Below are positions 10,434 through 32,995 of a stretch of 64,000 nt of DNA, in pieces. Below the pieces are notes generated by a model. The model was not told where the DNA came from and did not search any database. It saw only the letters and a list, made by a program, of their open reading frames with translations. A program made the translations under genes and the position numbers. Each line of letters begins with the position of its first letter. Position 1 is the first letter of the stretch. The DNA is taken from assembly GCA_001949185.1 (NCBI GenBank), contig BDGG01000005.1, positions 2,643,972-2,707,971 of the forward strand. Reading direction: 5' to 3'. This DNA is from Ramazzottius varieornatus (Eukaryota > Animalia > Tardigrada).

Positions 10434-10798
<365 letters not shown>

Positions 10799-10892: not shown

Positions 10893-11311
10893 TGGAGCAC
10901 GGAATCTGGCCGCATGCGCTGTACTGCACTGCAGAACAGCTGCAGCGCGTGAACTGACGGAATTTGTGCGGCACAGCACAGCATACAGCAGAGAGCCATA
11001 GACTACCGCGCAGATGCACCTACCGAAACCCAACAAAAACTACAGTTTTTGGGCATTCGAACGTCAGCCGTCTCAGCTTTGCCGTACTTTAAGGCAACGT
11101 ACTCCAGGTTGACTACCGATTTCGTTGACTGAATTACAAACCACGTCAATACATCGGCGTTCCATGCAGTTGCACCAGGTCAACGTGCAGCACAGCACAG
11201 CTGCTTAGCCACTGGGCAAGAAAGTTGTGCAGCACAGCGCAGCGTACAGCGCCCTGGTAATGTGCGCAGCACAGTTACAGCGTACTTTTGAACCTGCGGC
11301 CCAGTGCTCTG
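10893..11311. mobile_element. Non-autonomous hAT-type element inserted in the LINE 3' UTR
   Basis: Ends are TGGAGCAC...GTGCTCTG, with an 8-bp target duplication ATAACAAC at 10885-10892 and 11312-11319. Confidence 0.8.
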
Positions 11312-13707
11312 ATAACAACAGCACAAATTCTTTTTCGTTTTCTTTTCTAAAAATAGCAAGATTTAAACTAGCAGCACCGCGTCAATATGATTTTAGCACC
11401 ACTTAAAATTTGAAAAATTCGGAGCGTCAACATAGTGCTTGAAAGTTCCAAAGGCATTCAAATCAACAGCACTAGGGCAGAACAAAGAGTCTTTTAGCAG
11501 GGCTTCGGCGATGTAAGCAAATGAGCCGATGGTGGAATCAAGGAGGGAACGTGAAGAAGCGGCCATCGAAACTGGACTCAACATCAAGGCCACCCTACTT
11601 CTCGGAGGTGCTGATGGTATCGTTTGAAGTCCGGGTCGTGGCTTTGGTCTTCTTTTTCTGCTGGGCTAAGACGAATGCTTCGAAGGAACTTCTTCTGGAT
11701 CGATTCGAGCTGCTTTTGTAGGCTCTTGGTGGTGGTGAATCAGGAGGAGGATGCGTAGTCGGCAATCGATCGAACCAAGGATGTGAAGAGAAGTTGTTTC
11801 ACTGCTCCATAACGCTTAGGAAAGAGTCCATTGATACCGTAAAGTCTCTGCCTGCACTTTGCCGTAACTTTGTCCACCTGTACTGTCCACTCCATCTTGG
11901 TCGAGAGCTTGACGCCCAAACATTCAGCTTCGCTCACCAATGGAATCTTTTCTCTGTTGATCGTATAGCTGCCACTTGGCACCCCCACTTTCTTCATCTT
12001 ATTTGATATGCACAGATGCGGGGAATTTTCAGGATTCAGCTCAAGGCCAGTTTCTTTGCACCAGTCTTCAAGTCTCTGCAGGTCTTGTTGGAGCAAGGTA
12101 CAATCTTCTTTGCTTTTGATATTCCGCCATAGCACAATGTCATCTGCGTACTGCATCACGGTGCACTGCAGTCTTTTTGCCAAGTTGTTCACAGCAATAA
12201 TGAACAGGATCGGGCCAAGAACCGAGCCTTGCGGGACACCAGACGGGACAACGCACTCTGAAGAGAAGTGTCCCTCGACAGTCACTCTCTGACTTCTTCC
12301 GCGCAGGTAGTCGGACACAGATGCTCCAGCAAAACGAACAGCTGCAATGGCGAGATCTTGCCCACAATTTCTGAGAATATCGGAACGGATGTGAAAAAAA
12401 GCGTGACACATTCGCATTGCTCGACGCTGATATTTTCTCCCGAGCGCAACTTGCGCACTACGTCGTGGGGAAGAAGGTCGCGCAACAGCTTATCCACTCG
12501 ACTAGCTTCTGCTCTTAGAGTTTCCGTCTGGAGCGTCAGCTTCCTGTTCGAAATAATTTTGCTCTCAGAACAAACTCCAGCAGACAGACGATTGAGAATT
12601 TATTATTGATCTTCGAGCTCGTTGCTGTAGTGCATCAGTCGATCTCCAGAAGACATTCCTGATCTTTGGGGGTATACGGACTCTAGTGTTTCGAAGATGG
12701 CGTCGAGACTGGGACTTGTAGAATGTCTCTCGATTCCAACACGACATCATGAGATTCGAGAGCTTGGGAGGAACGGTATCAAGCTTTATTTAAAAATGTA
12801 ACCAGAATTAATTATTATCATTATGTGTTATTTTTTTTTAAATTTTAGTTTAGTTTCCGTCCATATATAACTGAAAAAGGGAGCAACCGACCGGTCGTGG
12901 TTGCCTGCTTTATTGATGTTAGATTATTTACTTTATAAAATTTTCTGTTCTTTGTATTTTTGTTTCTTAGTCTTATTTTGTTTATTATTCTTATACAGTG
13001 TCTTGTTTGTTATTAATTTCATTAATTAATATAATATGGAAGTTTAGCTTTGTGTGCGGGGTGCATTATTTAAAAACGTAACAAAGATCGAGACGAGAAA
13101 TGCAACGACACCTCCCAATTTGTAAGGGATTGCTCGTAAAATAGCGTATGCAAAGAAAAATATCATTCAGGTTGGATGACCAGAGGTAACTAAGCGTTTG
13201 CCGGAATAAAATTTTCCGCGTCTGTGAGAGAAAAGGGAAAACCATAATTAATTATTACAAATACAAATATAATCAAAAGTAAGGAAGTTAAATCTTTTAA
13301 AGAAAATAAGGGTGAAAAGTAATTTTGTCTATCCCCAGGCGCAGACCTAAGAGATTACTTGATTTTTGTTCATGAAGAAAAGTTAAATGTGTAATCACTA
13401 ATAGTCTGATAACGAAAGGTAAAACATAATGAAACAAGAAAAATCGAGCAAGAGTCGCGTCATTTACGAAGCAACCACCTCACACCCACTCGACTAACGG
13501 TGTTCCAATATATGGGATTGGTGACAATAGGTTTGTAATTACCGTCGCCCCCCAATAAAACATTTGACCCCAAGGTAGTACATAACCTAGAAAAGCCGTC
13601 ATTATAGATATTAAAAATATAATTACTCCCCTTTCTTTCTCCAGATGGTCCTCGTAAAAATCTGGAATTTCAAAGTCCCATTTGCCAGTTTAGTTCTTTT
13701 TACATAC

Positions 13708-13832: not shown

Positions 13833-15525
13833 ATACCCATCTAAAACAATAAACATGATCTGAAGTCATCAACAAATATTGGTTTTGAGACTGAAAGCCT
13901 CAATCTGGAGATTGGCCGAACTGAACTTTCGGTTTTGTCGGACCTGAAAGTTTAAGGGAAAATCAAAGACTTACGCACGGTTAATGCGCCGCATACGTTA
14001 GTGCGACGGATCGAAAATGCTATTGGTAGTTCAACTGAACGACCAATCAGACTCAGTGGAACGCATGTGAGCCAGCATCGGGCTCAGTTTTTCGACAGGA
14101 TCTGCTGGATCTTCGACTGTTTACCTCGTGGAATTGCTAAATTTCCTCCGAATTTTGATAGTTTTCCAAATAGGAATCCCACCGTTCCAAACGGCCACCC
14201 CTCGGAACGGAATTCCAGGAATGGAATGGAATTTGGAAAGGAAGGAAATTAGGAATTTACAACCTTGTTAGTCACCCTCCGTGCACATCCCGTATTAGAT
14301 GTCTAATACAATCGAAAGCTAATCAAATTCTCTATGTATAAAGCGGAATTTATGATTTTAATTAGTGGTGATTTTTATGAGTATTCATCATAATAGGATC
14401 TTTTTATGGGCGTCTTATACTTAAATGTGATATATATCGTAGCGGTCAGAGGGATAAATGAATAGCATAGTATAAATGTAAACATATTATGATAAAATAG
14501 GTGGGCGAAATCTCTAACAGGTCTGTAAAGCCTGCCCGCTGGCTTAACAAGAACCCTAAAAGGTCGGTCAATGAAGAAGGAATGAACAAGGAATTGCTTC
14601 GTTGTAGACTGGCAGCATTGTTGGCATCGGATCGGACACGCTTTTCCAGCCGGACGGCGCGGTCGTTGTGCACCGTACCCGAGACTTTGGTGTGGCACTA
14701 CGACTGAGTAGGCGAATGGGAGCCGAAAACATGGAACGGCGGGCAACGCAACGAGAGGCACTATATGCGGTAGCCCGTGACGCTCTTCGTTGCGTGAGTG
14801 ATTTGGAGTCCAGTTTGCTGTATATGAATGATAATGTTATGATGGGCTGTGGATGAGTTTTCTTGTTTTCTCCAGGTACCCATGTATTCTGGTTCCCTTG
14901 ATTTTCCATCGTGGGAGTTCTTTCCGGCGTATTGTCGGGTGCTTGGTGCGTTCCCCTTGACGGAAGTGTATCTGTAGAGCGAATTTTAGCGTCGGAAGAC
15001 AGAAAAACGGTAAAGGATCAGAACAAAAAACATCTTATTTCTTACAGCGGCGTACATACACAACTGTAGTACACGGACAAAGGGCAGCAGTAGAGGAAGA
15101 AACTACCGCAAAGGAGGAAAAAACTGCTGAAGGACAGGTACAGAGCACAGAATAAAATAAGCCTATGAAACTAAAATATTTAGGAAAATAAAAACTGAAA
15201 CACAAGAAAATACAGGGTGCGATACAGGGTGCGATCCAGGCCAAATACTTTCTTTTGGGTCTTCGGCAACCTTTTCCCGGAAAAATTTCCTCGGACATAT
15301 TTATTTTTCGAACATTTTCATTTGCAACATCCCGTAATCAATCTTTTCTTGTTACGTTCTTTCCGACATTTTTTCGAACTGTTCATTTTCTTTTCACCGT
15401 AATTTTTTTTAAATAAGAACAGACACAACAAATTACAACTGTGATACAATACAATACACGTTACAATAGCGTAAGCTGATTTGAGCGCACACTCACCACT
15501 CTCCCTTGGTGGGTGGCGCGTCGGG

Positions 15526-16055
15526 CTAGTAGTCCGACTCTCGCGTCGCCTCTGCGATGTTGACATCAGTCTCCTCTTTAGAGAAGCCGTACTGGGAAAG
15601 GTCTCCCAGCCGGTCTTGGTCAAACATGATGAAATATTGGATGCACTTCAACTGGAGGATTGATCCTTTAATGATTGGGGTGTCCTGGCAGCAGTCAGCA
15701 TACCCTGTCTTGACTAGCTGCACGGTAACTCGACGTGAATTCATCCTTGTAGCTAAAGGAGATGGCGAATGAAACAGGTGTTGTTCCTCGTAGTTGTACA
15801 AAGGATTAGAAGCGTTGAATGGAAGGCTTCGAGGCTGAACAGGAGGTACTTCTCTAGTGATGCGTTTTTGAGGGGCATCCAGAGACTGAGCAAGTTTTCT
15901 CCAAGCTAGGAGAGTTGCGATGGTCTTACGGTTTTGCGGGTCGCGCAGGAACTGGCTAACCTGGGACGTTCCCAGGGTGGGGTCACTTGTGTGGTGGCAG
16001 TTGGCATGCCTGCCAGAACTATGCCGACAGCCAAGAGGAACAGGGATGAATGCAT
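15526..16055 (-). pseudogene. Accessory ORF B of the Gypsy element: signal-peptide protein of unknown function, one frameshift
   Basis: MHSSLFLLAVGIVLAGMPTATTQ, then a frame change into QVSQFLRDPQNRK...GYADCCQD...EATRESDY. It ends just before the putative PPT. Confidence 0.55.
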
Positions 16056-16496: not shown

Positions 16497-17186
16497 TCAG
16501 AGCAACTGAAGGAGCTCCTCAGGCATGTCGAATGCCGTGAAGAACTCAGCGCTTAGGTCGTGCCATTCAGGCATCATCGTCTCTCGTGGTTGAATGATGA
16601 GACAGGGTAGGAGGTACGTGTTGATGGTCATAGCTTTGACTAGCTGTTGGCCTCGACGAAGTATGTGCGCCGGTCGCGCGTACTGAAGTAAATGATGGTA
16701 ACGCTCGGTGTAGTTGATATTAGGGTCTAGATCAAGGTGGCCTCTATACTGTCTGAAGGTAGTGGAGCTGAAATCAAATTGATCCAGCGCTTCAGGAAGC
16801 CGTGCCAACATGAGGATAGGCCGCTTCAGGATAGACCACGTTGGTGACTGTACCGTCACAGAAGTAGTTGATAATGCTTGGATTGGTACGGAACAGCTGG
16901 GCTTGACCCTGCGTGTGGAAGATCGGAGCGTAGATGTCATACAGTGCCGTCATCCACGTGTTAGTGATGGCGATATCTTGGTGGTGAGTGTGCAGTACTG
17001 ACGGTACATCGGTATCTGCAACAGCGACATTTCGGAAATGGGTGGTTTCACGAAAGACTGAGTCGGTCGGAAACTAGCGCACGCGTCGGTAGGATAGAGG
17101 AAAAGGGAAACCATTAGGAGGGTGAATAGTAGTTGTCGGGTGGGATGCCGGGGTTGGTTGATCGTCCGGCAGTCGTTGATTGTCAT
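16497..17186 (-). pseudogene. Accessory ORF A of the Gypsy element: hydrophobic leader, unknown function, frameshifted
   Basis: MTIND...RQLLFTLLMVSLFLYPTDACAS. An alternative-frame middle (HQDIAITNTWMTALYDIYAPIFH...) joins EALDQFDFSS...MPEELLQLL. Confidence 0.5.
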
Positions 17187-17189
17187 TTG

Positions 17190-20110
17190 TTTAGCGTTTT
17201 GACAACCTCGGTAACCTCTTCGTTTAATTCATTGATTTGCTTCCTTGCTGGCTTCATCGGCGCAACATTCGGTGGCGCTGTCGATGGTAGCCCGTAGGAG
17301 TTGTTGTTGGTGGTAACTGGTGGTGGCCTGGTGAGGTTTCCTGAGGCATTGTCGTTCAGGGAGACCTGATCGTAATCGAAGTCAACTTGACTAGTGCGTG
17401 TGTCGAATCGTACCTTCGGAGACTTGCGTCGTGAGAATATTTTCCATGACTTGGAACGAGTTGTCAGCAGTGGCGCGGTGGATCTTGCTGTGGATCCGGG
17501 CGTGGAGTCGTTGTAGATGGAGTTAGACTCGGTAGGATGGTGCTGTTTTGGTTTCTTCTTAGGGCAGCGGCACGTCAGACAGCTGCGCAGAGTTTTCCAG
17601 CCACAGCATTTGACTATGATTAGGCCTACGATGACAATCGGAGCGAATACGAAGAGAACTATCTAGACATTTCTGAGAGAAGACACGAATCTCTCGATTG
17701 CCCCTTCGCCGATTACTGCAACGGTGTTTGTCTGTTCGCTGTCCTGTCGCTGAACGTGTCAATCAGGGAAGGGATTCCGGAATTTTCCATGATTGCTGAT
17801 AGCTCGCCGAGAAGGTCAAAGTAGCTGCGATCAGATGGCTCGTGCCAATTGGCCAACGACTGCATTGCAGTCGAGTCAGCCTCCATCTTGAACATGGCTG
17901 CCAAGTGATCATGGCTAATGGATATTGTTTGTTTGGCCTTCTGCCAGTCATGAGCATTTTCTTTGCATTCCATTATTTGATCGCCAACTGTCGTAAAGAG
18001 GCCACCGTGTAGGCAGGGAACGAAGGGATTGATCAGAGTGTAGCCACCAAGACTTAGAGAGGAGTTGAGGACGAACGGTTCCATTCCACACTTGGTCTTC
18101 TTAGCACTGATATCTGTGGTTACTTTCTGACACTGGTACAAAAGGGCTTGTGACGTCCCGTATGCCGTGATAGAATGGCAATCGTTTAGACCAATGAGTT
18201 TTGCGGCACGGACCCCTGACTGCTTCGCCATCATGGACAGGACGGCTGCTTTGTTGAAGCGGGATTGACAGTCCAAGTTGTGGACTTCATTATTCACAAC
18301 GTTGGAAATCTGGACTTGGTTACCGCGTAGGTACTGTAGGTGTGATATCAGGAACTCTTGGCGAAGATCACCAGAGGCTGCATACGGGAATACTTCCTCC
18401 ACGTCGGTATCGCTTGACTGGCGTAGTCGGTTCAGAAAGCCGACCTTGCTTTGTGCTCGCAATCCGGATTTTGACTGCTGCTGAGCTGGCTGAATAAACG
18501 GTGGCTGAATCTGTGGTAACACCAAGGGTAGAGCTACGGGTGGCTCAGGTTTACTTGGTGGGATGAATATAGGCTCGTGTTGCGGTGGTAGTACTTGCAT
18601 CTGCTTTGGTGCTTGCATGTAACGTGGGCCGTCGTAGAAGCTTTGATGATTGCGAGCGGCTTTGCTGATTCTATAACCGTCAGGATCATACTGTCTTCGG
18701 ACATCCGCCCGGAACTGGTTTTCAGTCTCGAGGTTGTCCTGCTCTTTTTGCAGCTGCTCCTGAAGGAGCCTTTCATCTTCCGTTCGAGTCCATTCCCCTT
18801 GCAGTCGGTGCTGCTCTAACCGGTCTTCGTACTCGGTTAGTTGTTCAGGAGTCAGGTGTTGCATGTTCGGAGGCTGAGGTGTCGTCTCTTGGTGTTGAGC
18901 GGGTCTTGACTCTATTCGCTCATTTGGTAGCGTTTGCGACAATGTCTGTGGTGGCGGTCGTTGTGGCAGGTTGACAGGGACCGGCACTGGTTGCGAAGTA
19001 CTGGTAATGTTGATTGGTCGTTGGTTTATGACTTGCTCCGTCGTTACGTTGATAATCGGTGGCATGACCATTTCAGGCATGACTCTTTTGGGTTCGGAAA
19101 TGTTGGTGGGGGTGCCTCTTCGCTGTTCTCCCAAGTCTACGTAGTTCGTACGGAGACTTGGGTCCAACCCATCTTGGACGGGAGGTTGGTTTTGCGCGAG
19201 GCTGTTGGGATTGACGTCTATATCGACTTGCGACCAGATCTAGGACGTCATCGTGCTCTTCTGATGTGTAGGTGAAGTTGCGGAGGACGTCGGAGAATCC
19301 TTTGACGACGTGACGCATGTCGACGAGCGTAGTACAGTTAGTTTACTGAGCTTGTTCAAATAGGATAAATTCAACTTACTTAGTAGGGTCCCGTAGACGA
19401 AGACGGGTCTTTTCGAGTTTGTACATAGTACCAGAACCGTTGGCGACAAGCTGGTACTCGCATTGTTTCTTCTTGGGCGATTGGTCAATCGCGTTCCATA
19501 TCACGGTCATGTGATTCTTGCTCGCATAACCTTTGTTGCGGTCGGCACCGAGCTCACCGAAAAACGAGATGATGAGTTCTTTCGGACCGCTCTGAGTGAG
19601 GACTGTATGTAGGTCAACAAGACAGTTCCAAACAGAGTTCTTCGTAGTGGCCATCCAGGAGTATTCACGGGAAGGCGGCCTGGTAAAGGCGTACGTCTCG
19701 GAATTCGGTAAGCGAACCATAGGGTTCCCGTTGCAGGAAAGCGTTTGAGCCATTCGCTTACAGTCTGCATCAGAGAGATCGACTGGGCCGGACGAAGGTA
19801 TCGTATCTGTGGCACCCCAGAAGGATTTGTAGGTTTCAATCTGTTGCAGCGTAGCTTTGCAGGTTGTTCCGATAAAGTACTGAGCGTCCTTTTTCATGGC
19901 GTAGATGGACGCCCAGCACTTTATCGGAACAACCTGCTTAGGCTCTGGCGCCAGCTTTTCACATGTAGTATAGGTGGCTGAATCCAGAAGGCCCAAAAAG
20001 TGTTGATTTTTGCAATTGCAGATGTCTGCCTGAATAGTAAAGGCCGTAGGCAGCATAATGAAACACAGTACGAATGTGAGCCAAGCAGGGAGGTGGTGCA
20101 TGGCATTCAT
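17190..20110 (-). pseudogene. env-like viral fusion glycoprotein (class III-like), with in-frame stops and frameshifts
   Basis: Signal peptide LPAWLTFVLCFIMLPTAFT; GTTC...YKSFWG...DLSDADCKRM...FTRPPSREYSWMAT...WNC; furin site RYRR (19214-19225); HLQY...NEVHNLDC...GVRAAKLIGLNDC...YQC; TM IVLFVFAPIVIVGLIIV (17612-17662) followed by KCCG...SCLTCRC. Confidence 0.8.
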
Positions 20111-20401
20111 CTGGCGTGGTGGTTTTGTACGGGTTGATCGGCGAACCCTTGCAGCCGACTGGGTTTGGTCCTGGAGGTCTTCGAGGCCCTCGTCGGACTT
20201 TAACATGTTGTCAGCGCTAAGGCCCGATAACATTCGGTTTCCTCGTTGTTTCTAGCTCTTTAGTACCTTGACCGCCTTGACCAAAGACGTTGTTTGCGGA
20301 TGAGTTCTCTGTCCGGATTGGCTTGGGCTGCCCTCCCGCTCAGATTTAGGAGGGTTTGCCGAGTTAGAAACGCTGCGGTATTTGCGTAGGATGGGAGGGT
20401 C

Positions 20402-23400
20402 TTAAATTGTTTCCAACCTAGGTCGAGGAGTTGCTTCCCGAGTGGTGGCTGCTTGCGGTGTCACCGGGCGAGGATCGGGAATCCTGAGAGGAGGCGGCAT
20501 GGCCTTCGATGCGATGTTCGACCTTCTTGGTGGAGTACGAACCCGTGGGTTGTCCAAGCTGGACTTCGGAAGTGTCTCGTCGGTTGTGGACTTGCTAGAG
20601 CGAGCAATCGTGATAGGTAGTTGCAACGTGTTGGGTCGGGTTGTAGGGTTTGTACGAGTAGGAGGTGGTTCGACTGTCGTTCCAGCAGACGTTATATAGT
20701 CGTCCTCTTCGGCGTCGTCGTCGTGTTGCTCGTTGAGTTTTGCAGTTGTAGCATTCCGCGATACTTGTGTAGCTAGTATTAGACGGTCATTCGCTGGAAC
20801 TGCTTCGTCATCAGAACTCTCAATGACTCTGAATTCTCTAGGGTGAAGTTCGTCGAAATCAGGTTCTTCGAGGTCCTCGTCGCTGCCGTTGCTTCTAACA
20901 TAACGTTTCAAACGAGCTATGCTAACAACGGTGCCCGTGTTTGAACCCGGTCGGTTGTAACTAATGCGGAAGTTGTTAGGACCAGTTTGTTGCAAGATGT
21001 CGTAGGGACCACCCCAATAGTGATGGAATTTGGATCCTACTCCTCTTGACCGCGCGGGCCTGAAGAGTAAAACTTGATCGTTTACTTTGAACGGAGTTCC
21101 CTTACGCTTGGGATTGTTATATGCAAAGTTGTATCGGCGTGACTCTTCCAGGTTAAACTGTGCGTAGGCTCGAATGTCTTCGAGATGCTGGTGTGTGTCA
21201 GCGAGGAAAGGTTCAGCGTAGTCGATCGGAAATGTGGAATCGGAACCGAAAAGACACTCAACCCCATACATAACTTTGTAGGGTGACACTTTGGTTGTTT
21301 CGATAGCTGACGCAATCATGGCGAAAACAGCGTAAGGAACGTGATTCGTCCAGTCCGACTGGGACTCGGCGCAAAGCTTGGTGAGCTGGGAACCCAGCGT
21401 GCGGTGTCGACGCTCAACCACTCCTGTGGTCGTAGGTTTCCACGCCGTGTTCTTCAGATGCTTCATGGCAAGCATTTTGAGCAGATGTTGTGTGATCTGA
21501 CCAGTAAACTCCACTCCCAAGTCCGACGGTACTACACTAAAAAACCCGTAGCGAAGAGCTACTTCCAGGAGGAACTTAGCGAAAGTGAGTGCCGTGTGGC
21601 TGGATGTTGTTTTGGCAACTAGGAAGCCGCTGAACTCGTCGATGCAAGGCAGGATGTAGGTGTTACCGTTAGATGACCTTGTGATGGGTCCGACGGTGTC
21701 GCATACCACCGAGTGCCAGACTCGAGGTACCACATGAATGTGTTGCATGAGTCCGTATTTCTCTGATCGACCAGGATTACGGGTCTGGCATGTGTGGCAA
21801 CTACCTACATATTGACGGATGTTGCGAGCCATGCCTTTCCAATAGAAGCGCTTATGGATAACTTCAAGGCACTTTTTGAAACCCAAATGGGCCAACCCGG
21901 TACGGTGGTCATGGACGGTCTCACAGACTTGTGTCCATAGTGTTTTCGGAAGGACTAGGTGCTGAATCCTATATCCCCATTGGTCGTTGGAAACGTGGTA
22001 GAGGATCCCGTTGTCGATGGTGAACATCTGGGCGAGACGTTGGACTCGTTCTGTTGTGTCCTGTGACTCTGTCGATGAGAATTCAATAATCGGTTTACAG
22101 AAGGGGTCCGTCAACTGTTCAGACGCAATATCCAGTGTTTGTAAGTCGAGCTGAGCGGACAGGTATAGAAGCGGGAACTCAGCAGGTTCGGTGCTATCCG
22201 GCGGAACGTCACCGATGGCATTGAGGCTGAAAGCTTCAGCATCTTTGTGCTTCGAACCCGAGCGATGGATATAAATAAACTGAAATTCGGACAACCGGAT
22301 GGACCAACGCTGGAGCTTCGCGTTTTGCGTTTTGAGGTTATTAATGGAGGTTAGGGAGATGTGGTCGGTGTAGACTACAACTCGTCTCCCAAGAATGTAC
22401 TTGCGCCACCGATCCGCGCAGTACAAGATGCCCAAGGCTTCACGTTCCGTAGTTGAAAGGTTTTGCTCAGGGCGGGAGAACTTGCGAGAGCAATACGCAA
22501 CCGGGTGAAAGTACTTGTCTGTACTTTTAAATTTCTGTAGAAGAACTCCTCCACAGCTGGAGTTACTCGCATCTACGTGCATGGAGTGCTCTGCTGCTCT
22601 CTCGTCGAAAAACGAGAGAAGAGGAGAAGAACACATCTTTCTCTTCAACTCTGTGAAGGCAGCATCCGCTTCTGGACTCTAGATTAGCTTTTGTGTCTTT
22701 GTGACGTTGGAACCTGCATACATTTGCGTAAGCGGATTAGCGATGCGGGCGAATCCATCGATGAACATTCTGTAGAATGAGAAGAGGCCGAGAAAGGAAC
22801 GGAGTTCGGTTACCGTAACTGGTTTAGGGTAGTCTCTGACAGCCTTTGGTTTGGCAGAGTCTTGGGAAATTCCCGCTTCATTGACGATGAAGCCGAGAAT
22901 CTTTGCCGATGGCATGGCAAACCGTGACTTCTTCACGTTGACTGTAAAGTTTGCTTCCCGTAGACGCTGGAACACACGGCGCAGCTTGGCTAGGTGTTCA
23001 TCGAAAGTTGTGGAGTTAATTGCCAAGTCATCGACGTAGATTGACACGTCGCGGTTCAGCATGTCGCCGGAGAGAGTGTTCATGGTTTGTTGAAAGATGG
23101 AACTAGCGAGGTTTACTCCAAACGGTAATACTTTATACCGAAATTTTCCAGCTTCTGTGATTACGCTAAGCTTGTCGCGCGAATCTTCGTGTACTAGGAT
23201 TTGGTTATATCCTTGTACAAGGTGAATGGTTGTAAAATAGCGGCCTCCACCCATGGAATCAAGGATATCCGATATGAGTAGCATACAGTATTTAGGCTCA
23301 ACTACTACCGTATTAAGACGCCGGTAGTCACCGCACATTCTCCAACTGGGGGGATCGGTGTTCTTTGGGACCAGGACTACTGGGGAGGCCCAAGGACTGC

Positions 23401-24230
23401 GACTAGGTTCGATGAGCCCTTGGTCGATAAGCTTCTTTATTTCTGCGCTGATTATCTCCCGCTCTTTCTGTGGCATCCGGCGCGCAGGCTGCCATATTGG
23501 CTTGGCATTCGCCGTATCGATACGAAGTGGCTCGACGTTAGCTACGCCAATAGGGTGCTCTGCTGAGGGAAAGAGGTCCATGTGTTCTCTCAAGAGCGCT
23601 TTTATGGCGAAAAACTGGTTTGGTTCAAGATGCTTCCCGAAGACCAGGTCTGGATCGACGGCATCTGTCCTCTGGTCAGGATCGTTTTCCACGAGATTTC
23701 CTGCTATGCAGTGTGTCAGCAGGCTGGCTACCTCTGCCGAAGGTCGTTTGTCCCACTTTTCATGCAAAGTGGCGTGATCATTCATCTGGTCACTGTCTTC
23801 CGTGGCGTAGAAGCAGTATGGCTTATCGCATGCGAATATTGTGTCACGTATATATTGTATCATCGTGCAAGACCAAAGATGTGTTTTCCACTGGTCTCGG
23901 TTGACGAACTACTGCTTACAGCCACACTCGAAATTAGGACCAAGGTGTTGTGCTGAAGCTTGTGGGCAGGAGAAGACATGAATGCGGTAGGCAAGCCATG
24001 AAGCATTTGGTGTCCCGCATGCACAGGTGAACAGATCTTTGGTTGACTCCAAGGTAAGAAGAGCCCTGTTTAGCCCAAAGCGAAGGATAGGGTTATCCTT
24101 GAAGAGGGCTAGTTGATCCATGTGATGCTTCGTGACGTTAATAGGAGGATATGTTGGACTCCTGATACACGATACAAACGTAGCGTTGTCCTTCTCGACT
24201 GTCTGTTGATTGGGTAACTGATCAGCGGTT
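20402..24230 (-). pseudogene. Gypsy pol: zinc-finger module, reverse transcriptase, RNase H and integrase (single frame, two premature TAG)
   Basis: RT: PWASPVVLV, CGDYRRLN, LPFG, YVDD. RNase H: VDAS, EREALG, YTDH. Integrase: HDH...HLG...CHTC, CDTVGP, SDLGVEF, VERRHRTL, GPY. The ORFs 23909-24358, 22679-23863 and 20402-22648 share one frame. Confidence 0.93.
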
Positions 24231-25063
24231 CCACCAGGAATCCGCTGAGTCACGGAAGCGTAAGGACGCATGTTCCACAATGTCCCTCGCTGGAATACGT
24301 TGAAGCTTGCAAGCCGTCTCAAACTTCTTGATGAACATACCGATTTCTTCGTCGTCATGGCCGTGGAACAACGGCATTGGAATGTTGATTTTTGTGGCAG
24401 CTATAGCCTCGATGAGGGTATCGGCATCGAGCTTGACTTTCTTCGGTATTTCGTTGCCGTTGTCATCTTCGTCGTCCTGCTGTTCGGTCTTAACTTCATC
24501 GACAGCGTCTGTTTTGGGCAAATTAACGAACAGACCTTTCGCTTCGTCGTTTCGTTTACCTCTTTCTCCCCCTTTTTCTTCATCGTGTCGTTCGATGTCC
24601 TCACTGTTGGCGTTCTTGGCCATTTTATATTATTGTTGTGCGGCTCTGGTTGCTTGAACGTGCTGGTGGTGGTGATGGTCTACCAGATCAGCGTTGATCG
24701 GAGAAATTGGTTGGTCCACGTCGGAGGCAGGTGAATTGATATGTCCTCCTAGTCGGCGGAAGGTGGACGCAACAATTGGCATTGCGTACTCAGTTGCCAA
24801 GCTGTCGGTGGTAGCGGAAGAAGTAGTCGAAGTTGACGACTGTAACGTGTTATAGGCAAGGGTGGTAGTGGCCTCGTTGAGTCGTGATGATCAGATAGAG
24901 TAGGAACTTCGGTATCCGTGTTAGTAACGTGCTTAGTTTTGACGACGGTTACTTCGAAACGTTGTTCTGTTTTCTGTGGTGACGTAGGGACTGACGAAGC
25001 GGTACGAGCTGTACCCTTTTCGGACGATGCTAGTATTGATTCAGATTTCCTTGGCGGAATTAC
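24222..25063 (-). pseudogene. Gypsy gag, N-terminal part only (capsid start); the rest of gag and the protease are missing
   Basis: PLFHGHDDEEIGMFIKKFETAC...ASLRFRDSADSWWN is a typical retrotransposon gag capsid N-terminus. The sequence then jumps into the pol frame, and no D(T/S)G protease motif was seen. Confidence 0.7.
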
Positions 25064-25832
25064 CATCAAAAACGGTAAGATGGTAATGAAGTGCAAGGCA
25101 GATTTGCAAACTGACAACCAGTCGTCGGCCAATCCAACCAGTATGCTACTGTGTTAATTGTAAGATACGAATATCTTGATGAAAATTTTGTTACTCGCAG
25201 GTCAGCTTATTATACGATAGAAAGGTCAGTTTGACGAAAGTAACACGGTAACGTATCAGCGTAGAATGCGCAAAGTAAGATACTGCTAATAGGAAAGTGA
25301 GACACTGCTAGCAGGACAATAAAGATATTGCTATTGTATGCGATTTCGCAAGGCGACGTGAGACGTGCGCGCGAAACCAAATTACCACGGTGGGTTACAG
25401 GAAGCAACGTATGGCCACGTTACAGACGTGCTCACGTTTTTGGTTACGACTATGGTTAGTTTCACGGTAGGCGACGATAAACGTGCACTCGTGTTCGGTT
25501 ACAGCTACCACCAGCTACAGCACAAGGCGACGTTAGACGTGCGCGTGCTTCTCTTTTTAGACCGTGAGTTACAGACAATTTTTTTTTGGGCAAGTTGCTG
25601 CCGGAACAGTGCAAAAAAGCTCGGAAGTAATCAATTTCGAAAGAAAATCGTAATGCTAGGTCTCAAGAGAAGGAAAGGAAAAAAGGAGTCCCGACTGTTA
25701 CTGAACAGTCGGTTTATATACTTTCACAGCGAAGCAGAAGGAAAGAGAAAGTTCTAAAAGTACGTGAAGTGTCCGTGCTGATTCAGCACGAGTGCTTTAT
25801 TACCGAGGTAAGCTCTTTACAGGTCTTTGGTT

Positions 25833-25910
25833 TAGAGAACGGAATCGGGCCGCATGCGCTGCACTGTACTGCAGCTGTGCTGTGCTGCAGCACAGCTGCC
25901 GCGTGGCTGT
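25833..25910 (+). mobile_element. Left end of a hAT-type element related to 10893-11311, cut by the DIRS insertion
   Basis: TAGAGAACGGAATCGGGCCGCATGCGCTGCACTGTACTGCAG versus TGGAGCACGGAATCTGGCCGCATGCGCTGTACTGCACTGCAG at 10893. Confidence 0.65.
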
Positions 25911-26146: not shown

Positions 26147-28163
26147 ATGCCTCCGGTAGCCAGCGATAGCCCTAGTGGACGACACCGTTACGGTACCAAA
26201 TACCCAGCGCTCGGCGTTGAAAGACGTTCGTCGCGCGGTCAGTGTGGATCGGGCCTTGGAGCTGTTCGCAGAACCCGGACGAGAAGACCGACAGGGAAGC
26301 CCAAGCCGCTTGGAGAATGGATTCAGAAGACTGGAAAGTGGATCTGGAAGACTGGAAAGACAGGGAACTGGTCCGGAATTACTTCGCGTGTCGGATAGAT
26401 CAGGAAGACAGGAAAGAAGAATGGAATACGAAGGGAGCGCGTATGTTGGTGGCCAAGTTGGACCTGGTGGACACGACGTCTTGATGGGTCAAATGGGACA
26501 TTCTTCCGGTGGACGATTACAAGGCGAACAAGCAGGCCGAAATGGAAGGGATCCGTGGTTGCCTACCGACGCCACCTACCCGACACCAGAAGAGATTGCC
26601 GCCACCCTTCGTCATGTCAAGCAGCTGGAAGCTAGAAACGAGTCCCTCCATCGTCAGGTACGCTCCTCCCCAACGTACTCAGTCTCCCGGGCCCCTTCGC
26701 CTCTACCGCAGTACGGCAATCAAATACCTTCCTCACCTACCCCAGTTGTCTACAGTGTCGTTTCAAAAAAGCCACCTCCTTCTACTCATTTCAACTTCCC
26801 CCCAGTCACTCCTACTGTTGACAAGCTGCTTCGACAAAAATCAGCCTACGTGGGTTTTCCAGGATCTGGTTACTGATAGATATGTGCCTGATAACACCAA
26901 GCGCAAACAACCCGGTGACCATAGTACAGGACACTTGGTGATCGTTGACTTGCCCTCCTGGCAAGATGCGTTTTTGACTTTCTCTCTCTATCGGAGCTAC
27001 TATTACCCCGATATGGCTATACCTTTCCTTGTCTATAGTAGCATTATCCGGGGGTTGGCTTCACGAAAGCCTGACGTGCGCTTTTGGTTGGAATATGACC
27101 AACGTTCCCGTCAAAAGATGGCATTGCCGGATTCTGATGTAACCGGGTGGTACCACGAGAACCGTGATATCGTTAAGGCCGTTAAAAATAATTTCAAGCC
27201 AACTGCTACTACTACCACAGTTATCGGCACCGTTGCTCGAGGTCCATACTCTGAGTGGATTCGCACCGCTACCTGCCATATATGCAGCGAGAAGGGCCAT
27301 ATCGCAAAAACATGCCCCAGCAAGAAAGAAGGTGTGAATAGATCTTCTAATAGAATTTTTAACATAGTTAAGTTAAGGAAATTCAAGATTTGTTCACGGT
27401 ATACAAAGCTAGAGTGAAAGCTACTAAACGGGATATTCTTAGCATTTGCGGACAATTGGGCTTCGCAACCAAATGTATCCCGGCTGGCAGAATCTTCCTC
27501 CGAAGGATGCTCAATCTTGCACATAAGGTTAAACAACTCGACCATCCTAAACTGAAACTGAACGATGGCTTCAGAGCAGATCTGCAGTGGTGGATAGATT
27601 TTCTTCCGACATGGAATGGCTCGTGCAAGTTTCTTCGGACAAAATGGGTGGCGACTCCAAGTATGCATCTATTCACCGAAGCATCAGGTAGCATCGGTTG
27701 CGGTGGTGTTTACGGCGTAGAATGATGGCCAAGCTGGCTACTTGAAGCCACCCATCCATTGCTTTGTTGGAACCGTTGCCAGTTTTGATCTCGTGTTGTG
27801 TTTGGGGGTCAAACTGGCAGACAAAGCGAATCTTATTTCATTCCGACAATATGTCGGTGGTCCAGATCTGGGCAAAATGTACGTCATCAAATGTCGCCAT
27901 CATGACGGTGATACGCCGCATCTATTTTGAAGCGGCAAACAACAATTTCACGCTAAGAATAACGCACATAAGCGGTGTCGATAATACATTGGCTGATGCT
28001 GTGTCTAGATTCGACAACGCGCGGTTCTTCGAAAACCATCCCAAGGCCAATACCGAGCCCATAATGGTAGACAAACATCCTCGATTTTTTGCGGGAGATC
28101 ATGCTAGAACGCGGAAACTGTTCGAACTCGATGCAAGATCGCAAGAGCTCGTCGGTAAGCGAT
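26147..28163 (+). mobile_element. DIRS-order (Ngaro-like) retroelement: gag with CCHC knuckle, RT C-terminus/RNase H, start of tyrosine recombinase; RT core deleted
   Basis: gag: WQDAFLTF...FWLEYDQRSRQKMA...CHICSEKGHIAKTCP. RT/RNase H: LSICGQLGFATKCIPAGRIFLRRM, DLQWWIDFLPTWNG, LFTEASG, FHSDNMSVV, HISGVDNTLADAVSR. Confidence 0.88.
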
Positions 28164-28225
28164 NNNNNNNNNNNNNNNNNNNNNNNNNNNNNNNNNNNNN
28201 NNNNNNNNNNNNNNNNNNNNNNNNN
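28164..28225. other. Assembly gap (62 N)
   Basis: Run of N. Confidence 1.
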
Positions 28226-28840
28226 ATATCATCTTTCCGAACTTGCTCGCTTCTTCCACAGACATCTTTCTGCAACAATATTCGAGTTTCTCATTGCAGC
28301 ACTGTGTTAATCCGAGCTCCTGGGTGTTCAAAGGTGTTTGCTTACCTGGCTTTCTGTTGGATTTCAGAAGGTAGTACCGTTCTTCGTTTGGTAACGATTT
28401 TTCCACCAGCTGCCCGATATTTCTTTCCGACATTTTCGGATACCTCCTCATCTTCGCTCTTTCCGGACATTCCGCTTAAGTTACCTTCCATCGTAGCTCC
28501 AGTTTCACCAGCTACGGCGATAAATAGCGAGGCAGAAGAATAAGCCGTGAACAAAAAAAAGAAGTAAAACGTCGTGGTTTCTAATATGAACAACTGGGAA
28601 GATTATTCACATATTTCCGTTCGGTTACAGTCGGCACACGAAGTTGTTTCAGACGTGGCCTGCACGAAATGCAAGGCTACCAGTCAGCAGTTCTGTCGTC
28701 CTGCCCGAAAGAGCTGTGATTGGCACAGTGGCGACGCCGAAGATTCGCACGTCGAATCCAGAGAATTCCGTCTTTTTAGCAAATGTACTGCTGTGCGGCA
28801 GTCAGCTTGGTCTCGCTGCATGCTGTGCAGCGCTGCGCCC
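28226..28840 (-). mobile_element. Subterminal region and start of a putative transposase ORF of the same hAT-type family
   Basis: The reverse complement of 28650-28840 shares blocks (GCACAGCATRCAGC, GACTRCCGCRCAG, CCACGTC) with 10968-11150. A minus ORF EGNLSGMSGK...KMSVEEASKFGKMI follows. Confidence 0.45.
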
Positions 28841-28997
28841 TCTTGACGCCTGGACCTTCTTTAACTACGAAACGAACACGGAAGTACTTGGGGTCAATGA
28901 AGGTAAACTGTCAAGGTAGGCGGATATACACAATTGCGTAAACCATTTGCCCAGCCTTCGCACAGTCCCCACAGACCCCAAGCGAAGGCTGATTAAA

Positions 28998-29790
28998 CTA
29001 ACCTGAGATTCGCAGCATAGTTTGGGTCAAGGAGACCATATCTGGTCGGACGTATCGGTTTGAAACGTCGCTGCTCCATCTACCCATGGCCCTAATCTGT
29101 TCCATGGAGCATCCGGCTTTAGAAGCCGTCGAAGCCGCTCCTATCCGGAAACTATGAGAGGTAAAGCCATCCCCGAGAAAAATTTGTAGCTCGCGATTGA
29201 CACGTTGGCGAGTCAGGTAGCATCCATCATGGGAAATGAATAATGGTGTATGTCTTGCTGAAGATCTGACCAGCATATAAGCGTGAAGGGCTTGTACGGG
29301 ACAAGTATCCGTTTGAGTTTTTGTTAGATAAACTGCAGGAGGTGTGGTTTTGCGATGGGTTTTATCTCGCCGCAAACATATTTGGACCGAATCGCAGGAT
29401 ATTTGTAAGTCATTCAGGACAAGGTTTGATTTGTCAAAACTTGTCTCCTTCGAACTGGTATACTCGGACACACGTAACATGCCGTAGAAGGCCATGGTAA
29501 AAGCCGACCAAAGCATCAGTTGGTCGTGTCGAGGAAAGAGAGATCCGAATAGGTCAGCTTTGAGCTGTCGTAAATGTTCTATTGTCAGAGGCTTTCTCTT
29601 ATATGTGTCGGGACGGGTTTGATTGGTTAGACCTTTCAACATCATTGAGAGGTAATAGTCATTTCTACCAGGAACAGAGTATCCGGACGGATTTCTTGAG
29701 GGTAGAAGCCATCTATTTTCGAGGATCTGTCTGGTGTGGCGAACTTTGGAAGGCAATCGAGCTAGCCGGAGCTCCACCATCCTGTAAGTA
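28998..29790 (-). CDS. Tyrosine recombinase of a DIRS/Ngaro element (N-terminus damaged)
   Basis: Catalytic set GMLRVSE, DKT, CPVQAL, SHSFRIGAAS, GRWSS and RYVR. Confidence 0.92.
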
Positions 29791-29864
29791 ACTTCAATCA
29801 ACCGCACCAGCTGTTGATTTGTGGCATTACTGCCTGTGGCTGTCATTCTTTCTCTTCCTACAGA

Positions 29865-32800
29865 AATGACCGATGTCCTAGGGATGACCGCTAGGGAAAT
29901 GGGGAGACAACTGACCCTGCGCTATGCGAATCTCAATGGGATAAAGTCAAAGACGGAAGAGGTGAAGTCATGGACGGAGAAAGGCAAAGCTGACATCGCG
30001 GCCTTCGTTGAAACATGGGCTGACGACAGCGTAACGGATTCATTGATTGTTGACTTGGTAAAGTTCAACGTCTACAGGAAAGACAGAGTGGGATGCCAGA
30101 AAGAATGTGGTGGTGGTGGTATCGCGATCGTAGCCAAGAAAGACCTCCACACTCTGAGAACTGTTGAATATGAAGTGGATGGACTGGAGCTGATGTGGGT
30201 AAAGATTGTGGGGATGAAGATGGTCGCACTGGTTGGTGTCCTCTACGCTCCAGGATATGATATGGAAGTGTTTGCAGAGCTTCCATATCATATTGCAGAG
30301 CTGCTCAAGGGATTGCAGAGCCGATCCCTTGAGAAGATTCCACCGTACCTGCGAAGAAACCTGTCCTAGTAGGTGACTTCAACTGCGCAGACATCGACTG
30401 GGAAGACATGTCGGCTAAGAAACCCCGTACAAGAGAGCTGATATCTATCACGAGAGAGTTTGGTTTGTTCAAGAAGGTACGAGGTATCATCAGACAACGT
30501 AAAGAATCGTCATCCTGCCTTGACCTCCTCTTCGTAACTCAGCTTAGTCCGGTTCGTCAAGTCAGTATTCTTCCCAAGTTAACGTTCTCCAACGATCATC
30601 GTGGACTGCATTGTGCGCTGAGACTGTGGACGGTAAGCTTCCCAGCTCCGCCGAAGCCAATATGGGTGTTCGAGGCTGGAAGTCAGCAAGGTTTCCGTAA
30701 AGATGTGGACAGAGTCGACTGGAGATCGTTCTTCGATACTCAGTGTAACTCAGATATGGCAGCAGCTACCTGCGAAGCCAAACTGGTGGAAATTGCGCAG
30801 AAGCACTTCAGGTTGAAGAAAGTTGGACCCGGAAGTCTGAACCGACCATCACTCTCTCCACGGGTTATTGAAAGCCTTAAGAGACGTGACTGGGCTTTCG
30901 GGAAACGGAACAAGATGAGAAATTCAAAAGACTACAACTGTTGGGTGGACCGCGCAAGAGAAACAAAGAGGCTCCTGAAGGCAACCAGGGCGAAACAGCT
31001 CCGAAAAATCACCACTTTGTCAAGAAGGTGTCCAGAAGTGCTGTGAAAACATGTCAAGCGGTCGACAAAGTCAGAACGTCTTCTTCCTATCCCTCTACCT
31101 GGCGCTGAAGAGGAGTACCTAATCCATCCGAAAGAGAAAGCTAACCACATTGCCTCCGTCTTCCTGAAAGATTATGTCGACTGTGACCACCACTGCCACC
31201 ACCCAATAAACGAAGCTCAATCAACTGTGACCAAATGTAAGGAGTGGTTGCAAAACTCAAATGTTTCAGCACCGGAAGTATGGAATGTACTGAGGAACAT
31301 CTCTGTGAAGAAAGCAGCAGGCTCATCCCTTCTAACAAATGCTCTGATGAAGGCTGCTGGCTTTGCTCTCGTATATCCACTCCCTCGCCTCTTCAACCTT
31401 ATCCTTTCCACCAAGCAGTATCCTACCTTCTGGAAGAGGGCCGATGTTGTGCCGGTGCCGAAGAAGGGTGGCGCCACCTGGAGCCCACTATCTCTTTTAC
31501 CACTTCTGTCAAAAGTTTCTGAGAAGATTTTAGCTTTACAAATTTCGAGCTTCTTAGCGAAACACTTTGGTTTTAGGGCAAAACGGTCCACAGAATCCCA
31601 GCTGCTCCTTATGGTCCATCGGTGGTCACAATCGCTCTCCGAGGAGAAGGAAGTGGAAGCTGTGTGTCTCGACTGTACAAAAGCCTTTGATCGTATTCCT
31701 CATGAAGTGCTAGTGAGAAGTCTCCAAGACCATGGTGTTACTGGTGACTTGCTGGAACTGCTGGCAGGCTACCTACGTGGAAGGACTCAAAGAGTGACAG
31801 TTGGAGGCTACTATAGTGAATACAACGAGGTTCGGTCAGGCGTTCCGCAAGGTTCCGTTCTGGGCCCGCTGTTTTCCATTGTGGCGGTCAACAAGCTTTC
31901 CGACCAGGTGAAGTGCGAGCTCTTCCAGTACGCTGACGACTTGGTCGCTCACCATGTGATCGCTAGATCTGAAGACTGCCAAGCCTTTCAAGAATGTCCA
32001 AACCAGCTGGGTGAGAACTGTCAAGAAGCTAGGCTGAGTCTAAACCCGACGAAATCCCAACACATCCGCCTTTCCTTCAAAACATCTGGAAGTATTCCTG
32101 TCCCTCAAGGCAGCTATCACATTACCAGCCAGAATATCCCAACGGAAAGCCAGTCCACGTGCCTTGGTGTGGTGATCGACAGAAAGCTCAACTGGACCGC
32201 GCAGGTCGACGCAGTGTCTGTCAAGTGCCGGAAACGTCTCCACGCCATCCGCACGTATTTTCCACCACGCCGTGGTGCAGCCAGGCAACTCCTGTGCAAG
32301 AGCTTATTTCTTCCGGTCGCCGAATACGCCTGCTCAGTATGGAATCCAACAAACCATAAGCACCAAAGGCAACTGGAGCAGGTACAGAAAGATTTCCTGA
32401 AGAGCATCCGGCTGAGCAAGATACCAAAAGGACAACACGACAGCGATTTCAGCCAGTATCGCCAGCACCTGGCGGAAGTTCAGTGGGATTATCTGTGGAT
32501 GAGAAGAGCCAAGGCTGTGCTGGTCAACGCCTACCAGATTCGGACCGGAGGGTTCCCCGATGGAGAGCTCCTACTTACCAACGCTGGAGGCCTTCCGCAC
32601 CCTCGAGTCAACACAAGGAGCCAAGACCCGGCAAAGGTTCCTGACAGGAAGTTCCGAACTCAACCAGCCACAAGAATTAAAGAGGTTGACACTCTCAAGG
32701 TAACTTCTGATACGTTTGCCTATGTCGCCTCTGCTCTGGTAAATGATTCGAAATTTTGCCCATCTTCTGTAAATTGTCAAAGCTTGCCAGCCTTTAAATC

Positions 32801-32995
32801 TTTTCTCGATAAGCTGGATCTCCGTGGTTTTTCGTGGTGTGTGAAAAACATAGATAGTAGACTCTTGTAATTGTTACGTTTATTTGTTTGAACCTTTTTA
32901 TCTGGATCTCTTGCCCAATTTTTCATATTGTGTCATAGGCTGAGCACTTTGCTGGCGATTAAACACGATTAAAGCGAATAGTAATGATAATTAAG
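29865..32995 (+). mobile_element. Non-LTR retrotransposon (CR1/L2-group) ORF2: AP endonuclease plus RT, frameshifted
   Basis: APE: YANLNG, VETW, YRKDR...GGGIAI, GDFN, CLDLLF, NDH. RT: LDCTKAFDRI, GVPQGSVLGP, YADD. The ORF ends at 32870, followed by a 3' UTR and a short degenerate TAA-like tail. Confidence 0.93.

Follow-up and report, generated by a model that had tools for sequence, protein, structure and literature searches.

The 64,000-nucleotide (64-kb) stretch of the Ramazzottius varieornatus genome analysed here, which we call the window, carries on its minus strand the remains of a retroelement whose env gene lies in the same reading frame as pol. This raises the question of whether such an Env is made as part of a polyprotein or from an mRNA of its own. 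We give a probability of roughly 0.7 to the following reading: this is a decayed Ty3/gypsy element with an envelope gene, its intact relatives have Pol and a gB-like Env in one frame, and host signal peptidase likely frees Env from the polyprotein at an internal signal peptide. To our knowledge, env expression has not been studied in this group of invertebrate endogenous retroviruses. The parts of the element are listed in Table 1.

Table 1. Features assigned to the element, in window coordinates
Feature	Position	Strand	Basis or remark
gag 5′ fragment	24225..24623	-	P0002 residues 92-157 match 24416-24225 (33%, E 1e-5)
pol: Cys/His-rich pre-RT region, RT (YVDD), RNase H, integrase with GPY motif	20900..24160	-	Pfam, motifs
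Linker of low complexity (integrase tail), sharing the frame of pol and env and holding both linker stops	20111..20899	-	open in P0032, P0001, P0002
Stop codon 1 (TAA)	20402..20404	-	private to the window copy among copies seen
Stop codon 2 (TAG)	20252..20254	-	private to the window copy among copies seen
Predicted internal signal peptide of env, ~25 codons	20036..20110	-	hydrophobicity; mature start predicted near 20035
env ectodomain, predicted class III (gB-like)	17663..20035	-	tblastn of P0001; weak Pfam; fold of relative P0034
env transmembrane helix (from 17662), Cys-Cys juxtamembrane motif, cytoplasmic tail	17185..17662	-	P0001 transmembrane helix at 2163-2177
Extra domain, ~190 residues, behind second signal-peptide-like segment	16503..17156	-	P0001 2327-2546 matches 17156-16503 (37%)
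Small ORF with signal-peptide-like start, frame change near 15960	15526..16055	-	covered by related contigs in runs X1, X13, X18
Purine-rich tract then TG: candidate PPT and 3′ LTR start	15490..15507	-	sequence

The frame of RNase H and integrase runs for 758 codons (22678-20405) and is closed by the TAA. A further 49 codons in the same frame lead to the TAG, beyond which the frame is open for 291 codons (20251-19379), reaching into env; at 20110 the signal-peptide-like segment has its first Met. Only two stops thus part pol from env, as a reading of the sequence alone had stated. Taken as a whole, the pol frame (24160-19139) comprises 1674 codons with six stops, the other four falling in the pre-RT region (23909-11), at the RT/RNase H border (22679-81) and in env (19376-78 and 19343-45). 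Over the 98 codons of 20110..20404, two or fewer stops occurred in 30% of 5000 shuffles (mean 3.6), which is unremarkable alone. Over the 263 codons between the integrase end and the signal peptide the paucity of stops is remarkable (P = 0.0015; 2000 shuffles, mean 9.8); in the remaining two minus frames this stretch has 14 and 6 stops. As judged from these sequences, the continuity of the frame is convincing only once relatives are added.

The R. varieornatus copy itself is dead, having six stops, several frame changes and a loss of most of gag and the protease. At 24224 the sequence jumps to the pre-RT region, which accounts for this loss; contigs from run X4 end abruptly at 24224/24225, and residues 158-896 of P0002 have no match anywhere in the window. 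The env ectodomain is further broken by frame changes near 19140-19080 and 17750-17715. The four stops outside the linker and these frame changes agree with the earlier view that stops elsewhere reflect point decay. No partner LTR or LTR pair was found, the best local score being 30 against 33 for shuffles.

Sibling copies were compared through contigs from sequencing runs and through protein collections. P0032, an R. varieornatus gene model, is 85% identical over 124 columns and has a residue opposite each linker stop; the single gap in its alignment lies past both. At position 20404 the first codon base differs in two of the three covering X1 contigs, and in the one from X13, giving a sense codon. 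At 20254 another letter is found in both listed X1 contigs and in one of two from X3 (X1 and X3 represent one sample). There is no indel within 20170-20490 in the contigs, and their other differences (n = 31; 8 silent and 23 replacement) are as expected without selection on sequence. The stop at 20402, whose conservation across copies would have spoken against a continuous frame, is not conserved: contigs and P0032 read sense there. On this comparison neither linker stop is common to the sibling copies.

One X1 contig without the second stop carries its own stop at 20246-48. The linker is therefore closed in two of the three R. varieornatus copy types seen, two of the stops lie within three codons, and three were observed against ~1 expected from the decay rate of the copy (estimated P ~0.09). 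Such a pattern might be produced if the element had a built-in stop between pol and env that was read through or bypassed with low frequency, as in programmed read-through. We regard this as highly improbable, since the linker stops occupy three different codons, none of them common to the copies, and the four further stops and several frame changes elsewhere are ordinary decay. In addition, the frame is open in P0032, in P0001 and in all seven other listed members of the P0002 cluster that reach the junction.

The open frame is seen in the relative P0001 (2547 aa). Its tblastn alignment is one piece of 1680 columns, 66% identical, that stays in one frame across 24160-19139 and has a residue opposite all six window stops. 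From RT on, the identity of the two pol sequences is 66-86% per 100 codons. P0001 begins just ahead of RT, and the window's own family is thus documented as Pol-Env only. P0002 (3068 aa) contains Retrotrans_gag, aspartyl protease, RT, RNase H, integrase and Monjiviricetes_fusion in that order. Its cluster has 34 members; among the 14 others listed, six span 2985-3421 aa with a 97-98% match to P0002, P0026 also crosses the junction, seven are fragments elsewhere, and none starts or stops in the linker. The open path in relatives leads from RT through integrase and a linker of ~290 residues to a signal-peptide-like segment and env. The ISYNRPG-to-LPxW spacing is 291 residues in the window, 289 in P0001 and 298 in P0002; linker length is kept, yet sequence identity falls to 20-48%. 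An RRS-x-R motif lies at the linker end (20143-20114). The same order is found in P0184 and P0038 from Paramacrobiotus metropolitanus, whose Pol core is 32-34% identical. P0032, P0036, P0038, P0184, P0103 and P0161 are gene models in which predicted introns could mask stops, and P0032 is without a signal peptide and has further gaps. The intact relatives, with their single Pol-Env or Gag-Pol-Env frames, uphold the proposal that env is a C-terminal extension of Pol.

A fusion of this kind could also be an accident, or an artefact of gene calling, given that several of the supporting proteins are gene models. In type 1 HERV-K(HML-2) a 292-bp deletion creates a Pol-Env fusion through loss of the pol stop (PMC11659944). 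There is very little to recommend this explanation here: the env N-terminus is complete, with signal and first Cys motif; P0001 is collinear with the window DNA in one frame; and the layout recurs in three tardigrade genera and two further families, with Pol cores 32-80% identical. Metagenome contigs scanned with P0001 gave no match. Word-based searches, a method that missed known relatives, found the env N-terminal half in none of 948 candidate longer proteins and the P0001 env region only in itself among 7718.

On its domains and its matches annotated as gypsy-type Pol, the element is classified as an envelope-carrying Ty3/gypsy (Metaviridae). Pfam matches in the window pol are RVT_1, RT_RNaseH, Integrase_H2C2 and rve. 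The gypsy-type RNase H, H2C2 zinc finger and GPY/F integrase tail are present (PF17917, PF17919, PF17921, PF22938), and the domain order is that of Ty3/gypsy: RT-RH-IN in the window, where the protease is absent, and Gag-PR-RT-RH-IN in P0002 and P0019. The active site is YVDD in the window and YVDD, YIDD or YLDD across the window and its relatives. Membership of the Belpaoviridae (Atlas/Cer13 type) was rejected, the element having YVDD instead of YVDN and a predicted class III Env instead of a phlebovirus-like class II Env; the single Gag-Pol-Env polyprotein that the P0002 cluster has in common with that family is a functional likeness only.

Structural modelling places the Env as a class III, gB-like fusogen. 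In the window env, Pfam Rhabdo_glycop_FD gave a match under the cut-off (E 0.0026). The relative P0034, whose identity to the two halves of the window env is 33% and 48%, was modelled with a mean pLDDT of 66 and a pTM of 0.31; the best PDB matches of this model were herpesvirus gB and VSV G (E 2e-6 to 1e-4, with global TM-scores of just 0.11-0.14), and against a viral library they were rhabdo-like G and gB (best E 4e-15). An Atlas feature search on Env class had gB as its top match at 0.90; with a 244-residue piece from the window it gave weak unrelated matches only (0.78-0.82). A PDB sequence search with alignment A1 gave no fusogen; the lectin insert present in distant relatives dominated its matches. 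Cysteine positions run parallel between P0001 and P0002, and a furin-type RYRR (19225-19214, read by eye) followed by a Pro/Gln-rich insert has matching sites in both. Under the operational definition of an HSV/gB-type errantivirus (Chary and Hayashi), a class III ectodomain between signal peptide and transmembrane helix is recognized here through the P0034 model; gag, pol and env are intact in P0002-type relatives, though not in the decayed window copy.

The predicted signal peptide is the sole hydrophobic segment over threshold within the 1674-codon frame and sits exactly at the Pol/Env border, consistent with the suggestion that Env is released there. Its cleavage site was set by eye, guided by small residues at -3/-1 and by where free-standing relatives have their N-termini. 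Polyproteins with internal signals are known from flaviviruses and bunyaviruses, which serve as models. By analogy, the ribosome would produce Gag-Pol in the cytosol, and the internal signal would then dock the nascent polyprotein to the ER. The Env ectodomain would pass into the lumen and be cut free, with the transmembrane helix halting transfer and furin cleaving at RYRR; a second signal after the env tail would export the last domain. The signal stub would stay on Pol, anchoring its C-terminus in the membrane, until the disordered linker was cut by the element's protease.

Whether env could also be started independently depends on the methionines near the signal. Ahead of the signal the window and P0001 retain a Met, which precedes the first Cys motif by 27-30 residues. 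An inner Met at 20 is present in all P0002-type members, and P0038 and P0184 have one at 56; the Met preceding the signal is Leu in three of the eight P0002-cluster members that cover the site. Independent initiation is possible, from sequence, where such a Met exists (window, P0001, P0002-type, P0038/P0184). In P0036 (Hypsibius) and P0161 (Daphnia) no Met could start the whole signal peptide, the next upstream Met being 145 and 156 residues off, respectively.

The frame could be continuous while most Env came from an mRNA spliced or internally started at or into the linker, the polyprotein route being minor. Cer1 CERV lies within the polyprotein numbering although its mRNA is spliced (PMC10309623), and the Oikopleura Tor env mRNA is spliced or arises from an internal promoter, sometimes inside pol (PMC4402516). 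The window has a pyrimidine-rich AG at 20484 (12/15 pyrimidines), and a single frame would impose equal amounts of Gag, Pol and Env. This arrangement is unlikely as the main route, although clearly less so than a designed stop or an accidental fusion: it leaves the missing pol stop unexplained in families just 32-49% identical in Pol, and P0036 and P0161 have no usable Met. The four contig sets contain no intron-like joint near the linker, which weighs little since contigs drop rare forms. The single frame in relatives favours a polyprotein, whereas the earlier wording that it replaces a spliced mRNA went too far, given the Cer1 precedent and the Met before the signal.

Drosophila errantiviruses (gypsy, ZAM) and Oikopleura Tor are likewise Ty3/gypsy elements with env 3′ of pol, but as a separate env ORF, and in the Drosophila errantiviruses the env mRNA is spliced. 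The Env of the latter is F-type (PMC13524379). The tardigrade HSV/gB-type 'ancient errantiviruses' (Hduj_errantivirus_4/5/6 and Pmet_errantivirus_4/5; Chary and Hayashi, eLife 2026, PMC13524379) have a Ty3/gypsy pol followed by a gB-type env, as in the window, and their five rows include no Ramazzottius element. By eye, the domain I row of Hduj_errantivirus_6 (supplementary file 2) has long motifs in common with P0002, P0036 and the window, although that element is labelled GAG-POL, unlike the Pol-Env of the window's family. The nematode, bryozoan and flatworm GAG-ENV-POL elements of the same paper also have a gB-type Env in Ty3/gypsy, but between Gag and Pol instead of after integrase.

The sequence-only reading had called a Pol-Env frame unusual for Ty3/gypsy. 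It is indeed scarcely discussed: the main text of PMC13524379 does not take up polyprotein, single ORF, in-frame fusion, splicing, frameshift, subgenomic mRNA or internal promoter for env, and in the literature outside subscription journals we found no discussion of a described Ty3/gypsy Pol-Env polyprotein. However, the supplements of PMC13524379 contain five labels reading GAG-POL-ENV or POL-ENV, the tardigrade one being that of Pmet_errantivirus_4, which is given as GAG-POL-ENV. The layout is thus known in other retroelements and hardly discussed for the tardigrade gB-type Ty3/gypsy group. In Cer1 (Caenorhabditis elegans, Ty3/gypsy) the ORF at the env position is continuous with the polyprotein, as in the window's relatives, but it encodes CERV, a nuclear RNA-export factor and no fusogen (PMC10309623). 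Atlas virus and nematode Belpaoviridae have one 2828-residue Gag-Pol-Env without stops or introns, with Env C-terminal and predicted proteolytic sites (PMC9094657). This likeness, together with the Gag-Pol-Env frames of the P0002 cluster, bears out the comparison with nematode Bel/Pao elements. Atlas is nevertheless Bel/Pao, with YVDN and class II phlebovirus-like Gn-Gc (PMC9094657), whereas the window element has a Ty3/gypsy-type integrase tail and a predicted class III Env; it works like Atlas but is not a member. The Gag-Pol-Env layout of nematode Bel/Pao is thus also present in Ty3/gypsy with another fusogen class, and therefore arose more than once.

The polyprotein reading is a concrete, testable expression strategy in which an env-specific mRNA is unneeded, Env and Pol would be made 1:1, and Pol would be briefly membrane-bound. 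It also carries a warning for annotation, as an env of this type hides in long 'pol' proteins or is mis-started at an inner Met.

Downstream of env, the extra domain is in frame with env in P0001 and split by frame changes in the window. It has no Pfam match, and the accessible part of PMC13524379 does not mention this window/P0001 feature. The post-env domains of P0001 and of P0019, P0021, P0027 and P0031 have no mutual similarity. The small ORF beyond, also without a Pfam match, probably belongs to the element. A tentative and rather doubtful extension is a flavivirus-style arrangement: one frame would encode Gag-Pro-Pol-Env and an exchangeable exported cargo, unrelated between the P0001 and P0002 families, with two internal signal cuts. 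The stub would tether Gag-Pol at the ER beside Env, coupling assembly to envelopment with no env mRNA, and extended and free-standing env would have switched several times. Most distant env relatives speak against a polyprotein: 89 of 150 matches start at their own signal peptide, 88 of them with Met, and 12 have more than 40 residues in front. In a quick env tree, from which 37 of 153 rows were omitted as short matches and in which P0002 was mislabelled as unextended, the extended forms are scattered, with 9 changes where shuffles averaged 10.7, and 20 of 500 shuffles as low.

The RNase H and integrase frame of the element runs from 22678 to 20405 on the minus strand and is terminated by a TAA at 20402–20404. 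After this stop there are 49 codons to a TAG at 20252–20254 and then 291 open codons, which continue into env in the same frame. The sequence-only reading, in which env shares the frame of pol with two stops in between, is confirmed by frame translation, by shuffling and by relatives that are open throughout. Within the 98 codons considered in that reading, two or fewer stops arose by chance in 30% of shuffles. Over the whole 263-codon linker between the integrase and the signal-peptide-like segment of env, two stops are fewer than chance would produce (P = 0.0015, shuffles); the other two frames of the linker hold 14 and 6 stops. The entire pol-env frame (24160–19139, minus strand) comprises 1674 codons with six stops, and we consider it almost certain that this frame is continuous in the element's family.

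Three independent lines of sequence comparison agree in indicating that the two linker stops are decay, since intact relatives, a sibling copy and non-identical contigs from sequencing runs of the same organism lack them. Among the intact relatives, the Pol-Env protein P0001 (2547 aa) aligns to the window in a single frame over 1680 columns with 66% identity, and has a residue opposite every one of the six stops. P0002 (3068 aa) is a single frame that extends from Gag through protease, RT, RNase H and integrase to env. Its cluster has 34 members, of which 15 are listed; besides P0002 itself, 6 of the 14 listed are 2985–3421 aa long, one more spans the junction and seven are fragments elsewhere, with none starting or ending within the linker. 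P0184 has the order RT-RNase H-integrase-env. The Pol cores across the P0001, P0002 and P0184 families are 32–80% identical, and the Pol-Env layout is therefore old.

The sibling copy P0032 aligns collinearly across the linker, with a residue at the position of each stop. In the contigs (22 of 26 records compared; X1 and X3 are one sample), the first codon base at 20404 differs from the window in two of the three covering X1 contigs, in two from X3 and in the single covering X13 contig. At 20254 the window base is replaced in both listed X1 contigs and in one of two from X3. Pieces identical to the window were found in X13 and X17 at 20254 and in X17 at 20404, and the listed records contain no indels within 20170–20490. 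Comparison with other copies, which the sequence-only reading had proposed as a check, thus finds neither stop common to the siblings. Two observations count against an open linker: one X1 contig carries a separate stop at 20246–48, and the other copy differences (8 silent and 23 replacement, n = 31) give a neutral ratio. The family looks old and of low copy number in this genome. Between fixed motifs the linker measures 291, 289 and 298 residues (window, P0001 and P0002, respectively) at 20–48% identity; its sequence is free and its length kept.

The window copy is dead, because it has six stops, frame changes in env, a gag that is mostly lost (its first part only, then a jump at 24224) and no LTR pair that we could find for the element in the window. 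Pfam matches comprise RT, gypsy-type RNase H, the integrase core and an H2C2 finger; the element also shows a YVDD active site and a GPY motif in its integrase tail. The closest named relatives are all from tardigrades: Ramazzottius varieornatus (P0032, 83–85% identity), Hypsibius exemplaris (P0033, P0036) and Paramacrobiotus metropolitanus (P0038, P0184). They point to a tardigrade as host. By eye, the active protease of P0002 is seemingly preceded by a degenerate stretch resembling a protease and by two CCHC knuckles.

The sole hydrophobic segment above threshold in the window frame lies at the Pol/Env border; P0001 has two, the second being the TM helix of env. In form the border segment matches the signal peptides at the N-termini of free-standing relatives, and it is preceded by RRS-x-R, a motif that is a putative marker of gypsy integrase ends. 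As the motif also lies near the C-terminus of an ordinary Pol (P0010, one of 15 checked), env appears to be joined directly onto a natural integrase end. The internal signal would direct co-translational ER targeting and be cut by signal peptidase, the TM helix would act as stop-transfer, and furin would cleave at RYRR (19225–19214; RYKR in P0001, RYRR in P0002). Env could instead come from a spliced or internally started mRNA, and an independent start is also possible in the window, in P0001, in all P0002-type members (inner Met) and in P0038 and P0184 (Met at 56). Against this, P0036 and P0161 have no Met able to start the whole signal peptide, and the Met ahead of the signal is Leu in three of eight P0002-type members. 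We infer the route through the internal signal, and put the probability that Env comes mainly from the polyprotein at roughly 70%.

In the list of 150 env hits, the signal is preceded by more than 40 residues in 12. Another 89 begin at the signal, 88 of them with Met (this group wrongly includes P0032), and 49 begin within env. Integrase matches occur in three of the 12 extended hits: P0038, P0103 (Daphnia sinensis) and, weakly, P0161 (Daphnia magna). P0001 and P0002 are missing from the list, whose longest hit is 1186 aa, and long fusions are therefore seemingly under-counted. Extended forms are scattered on a quick tree (116 rows), and part of this scatter could be gene-calling noise.

Pfam matches for env are weak: Rhabdo_glycop_FD in the window (E 0.0026) and Monjiviricetes_fusion in P0002 (E 1e-4). 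For the relative P0034, the top Atlas match was herpesvirus gB (0.90). The best PDB matches to its structure model (mean pLDDT 66, pTM 0.31) were gB and VSV G; against viral models, rhabdo-like G and gB matched best. Together these matches support Env as a class III fusogen, in class and not in detailed fold because global TM-scores were low (0.09–0.15). A Ricin_B-type lectin domain lies mid-ectodomain in 13 of 27 scanned relatives (P0043, P0045, P0047, P0060, P0061, P0070, P0071, P0104, P0144, P0152, P0164, P0167 and P0179), approximately where the window family has the furin site and a Pro/Gln-rich insert; it is possibly a receptor-binding module in a gB-like Env. Lectin and ricin are not mentioned in the text of PMC13524379.

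That paper describes five tardigrade gB-type elements, and its supplement labels Pmet_errantivirus_4 and rotifer, springtail and water-flea elements GAG-POL-ENV, and a bee element POL-ENV. We read these labels as fused frames, which the main text does not discuss; the layout is thus already implied there. Judged by eye, window-family env is similar to the domain I row given for Hduj_errantivirus_6. The element belongs with the tardigrade gB-type errantiviruses; judged from the layout of its genes it would work like Atlas-type belpaoviruses, but is not placed with them. In Cer1, an ORF that is continuous with the polyprotein is expressed by splicing (PMC10309623), Tor env uses splicing or internal promoters (PMC4402516), and type 1 HERV-K has an accidental Pol-Env fusion (PMC11659944). 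In the literature searched, we found no paper discussing a Pol-Env polyprotein in Ty3/gypsy; such an account may exist in older or subscription publications.

Beyond the env tail, P0001 has a second signal-like segment and a domain of ∼190 residues, also present in the window. P0019, P0021 and P0027 have an unrelated domain of ∼260 residues, and P0002, P0018, P0023 and P0029 end before such a domain. Neither domain has a Pfam match, and the position resembles a slot for exchangeable cargo. P0031 also has a post-env extension. The small ORF following env has no Pfam match.

Positions of features in the window and in related proteins
Feature	Position	Strand	Basis or remark
Cys/His-rich, zinc-finger-like region before RT	24160–23700; P0001 1–150; P0002 890–1010	−	Between protease and RT
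Post-env domain	17156–16503; P0001 2327–2547	−	P0001 similarity
Small ORF, signal-peptide-like start, broken by frame change	16055–15526	−	Between env and PPT-like tract
Gag-like ORF with CCHC motif, and RT/RNase H-like pieces	within 26160–29921	+	Motifs
Tyrosine-recombinase-like ORF	28998–29921	−	Motifs
LINE-like endonuclease and RT frames, decayed	29818–32870	+	
LINE-like endonuclease and RT frames, decayed	11740–12489	−	
Pieces related to the LINE-like frames	2129–2844; 5948–6876		
Perfect tandem array, 51-base period, ∼7 copies	10435–10797		
Short dispersed repeat of high copy number, immediately upstream of the element	25822–25903		Many contigs enter or leave there
40-base piece related to the dispersed repeat	10895–10934		

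The region 26160–29921 resembles a DIRS-type element, judged by its motifs. At 12282–12599 (minus strand) there is a fragment that we take to resemble the catalytic domain of a guanylate cyclase; its motif residues are altered.
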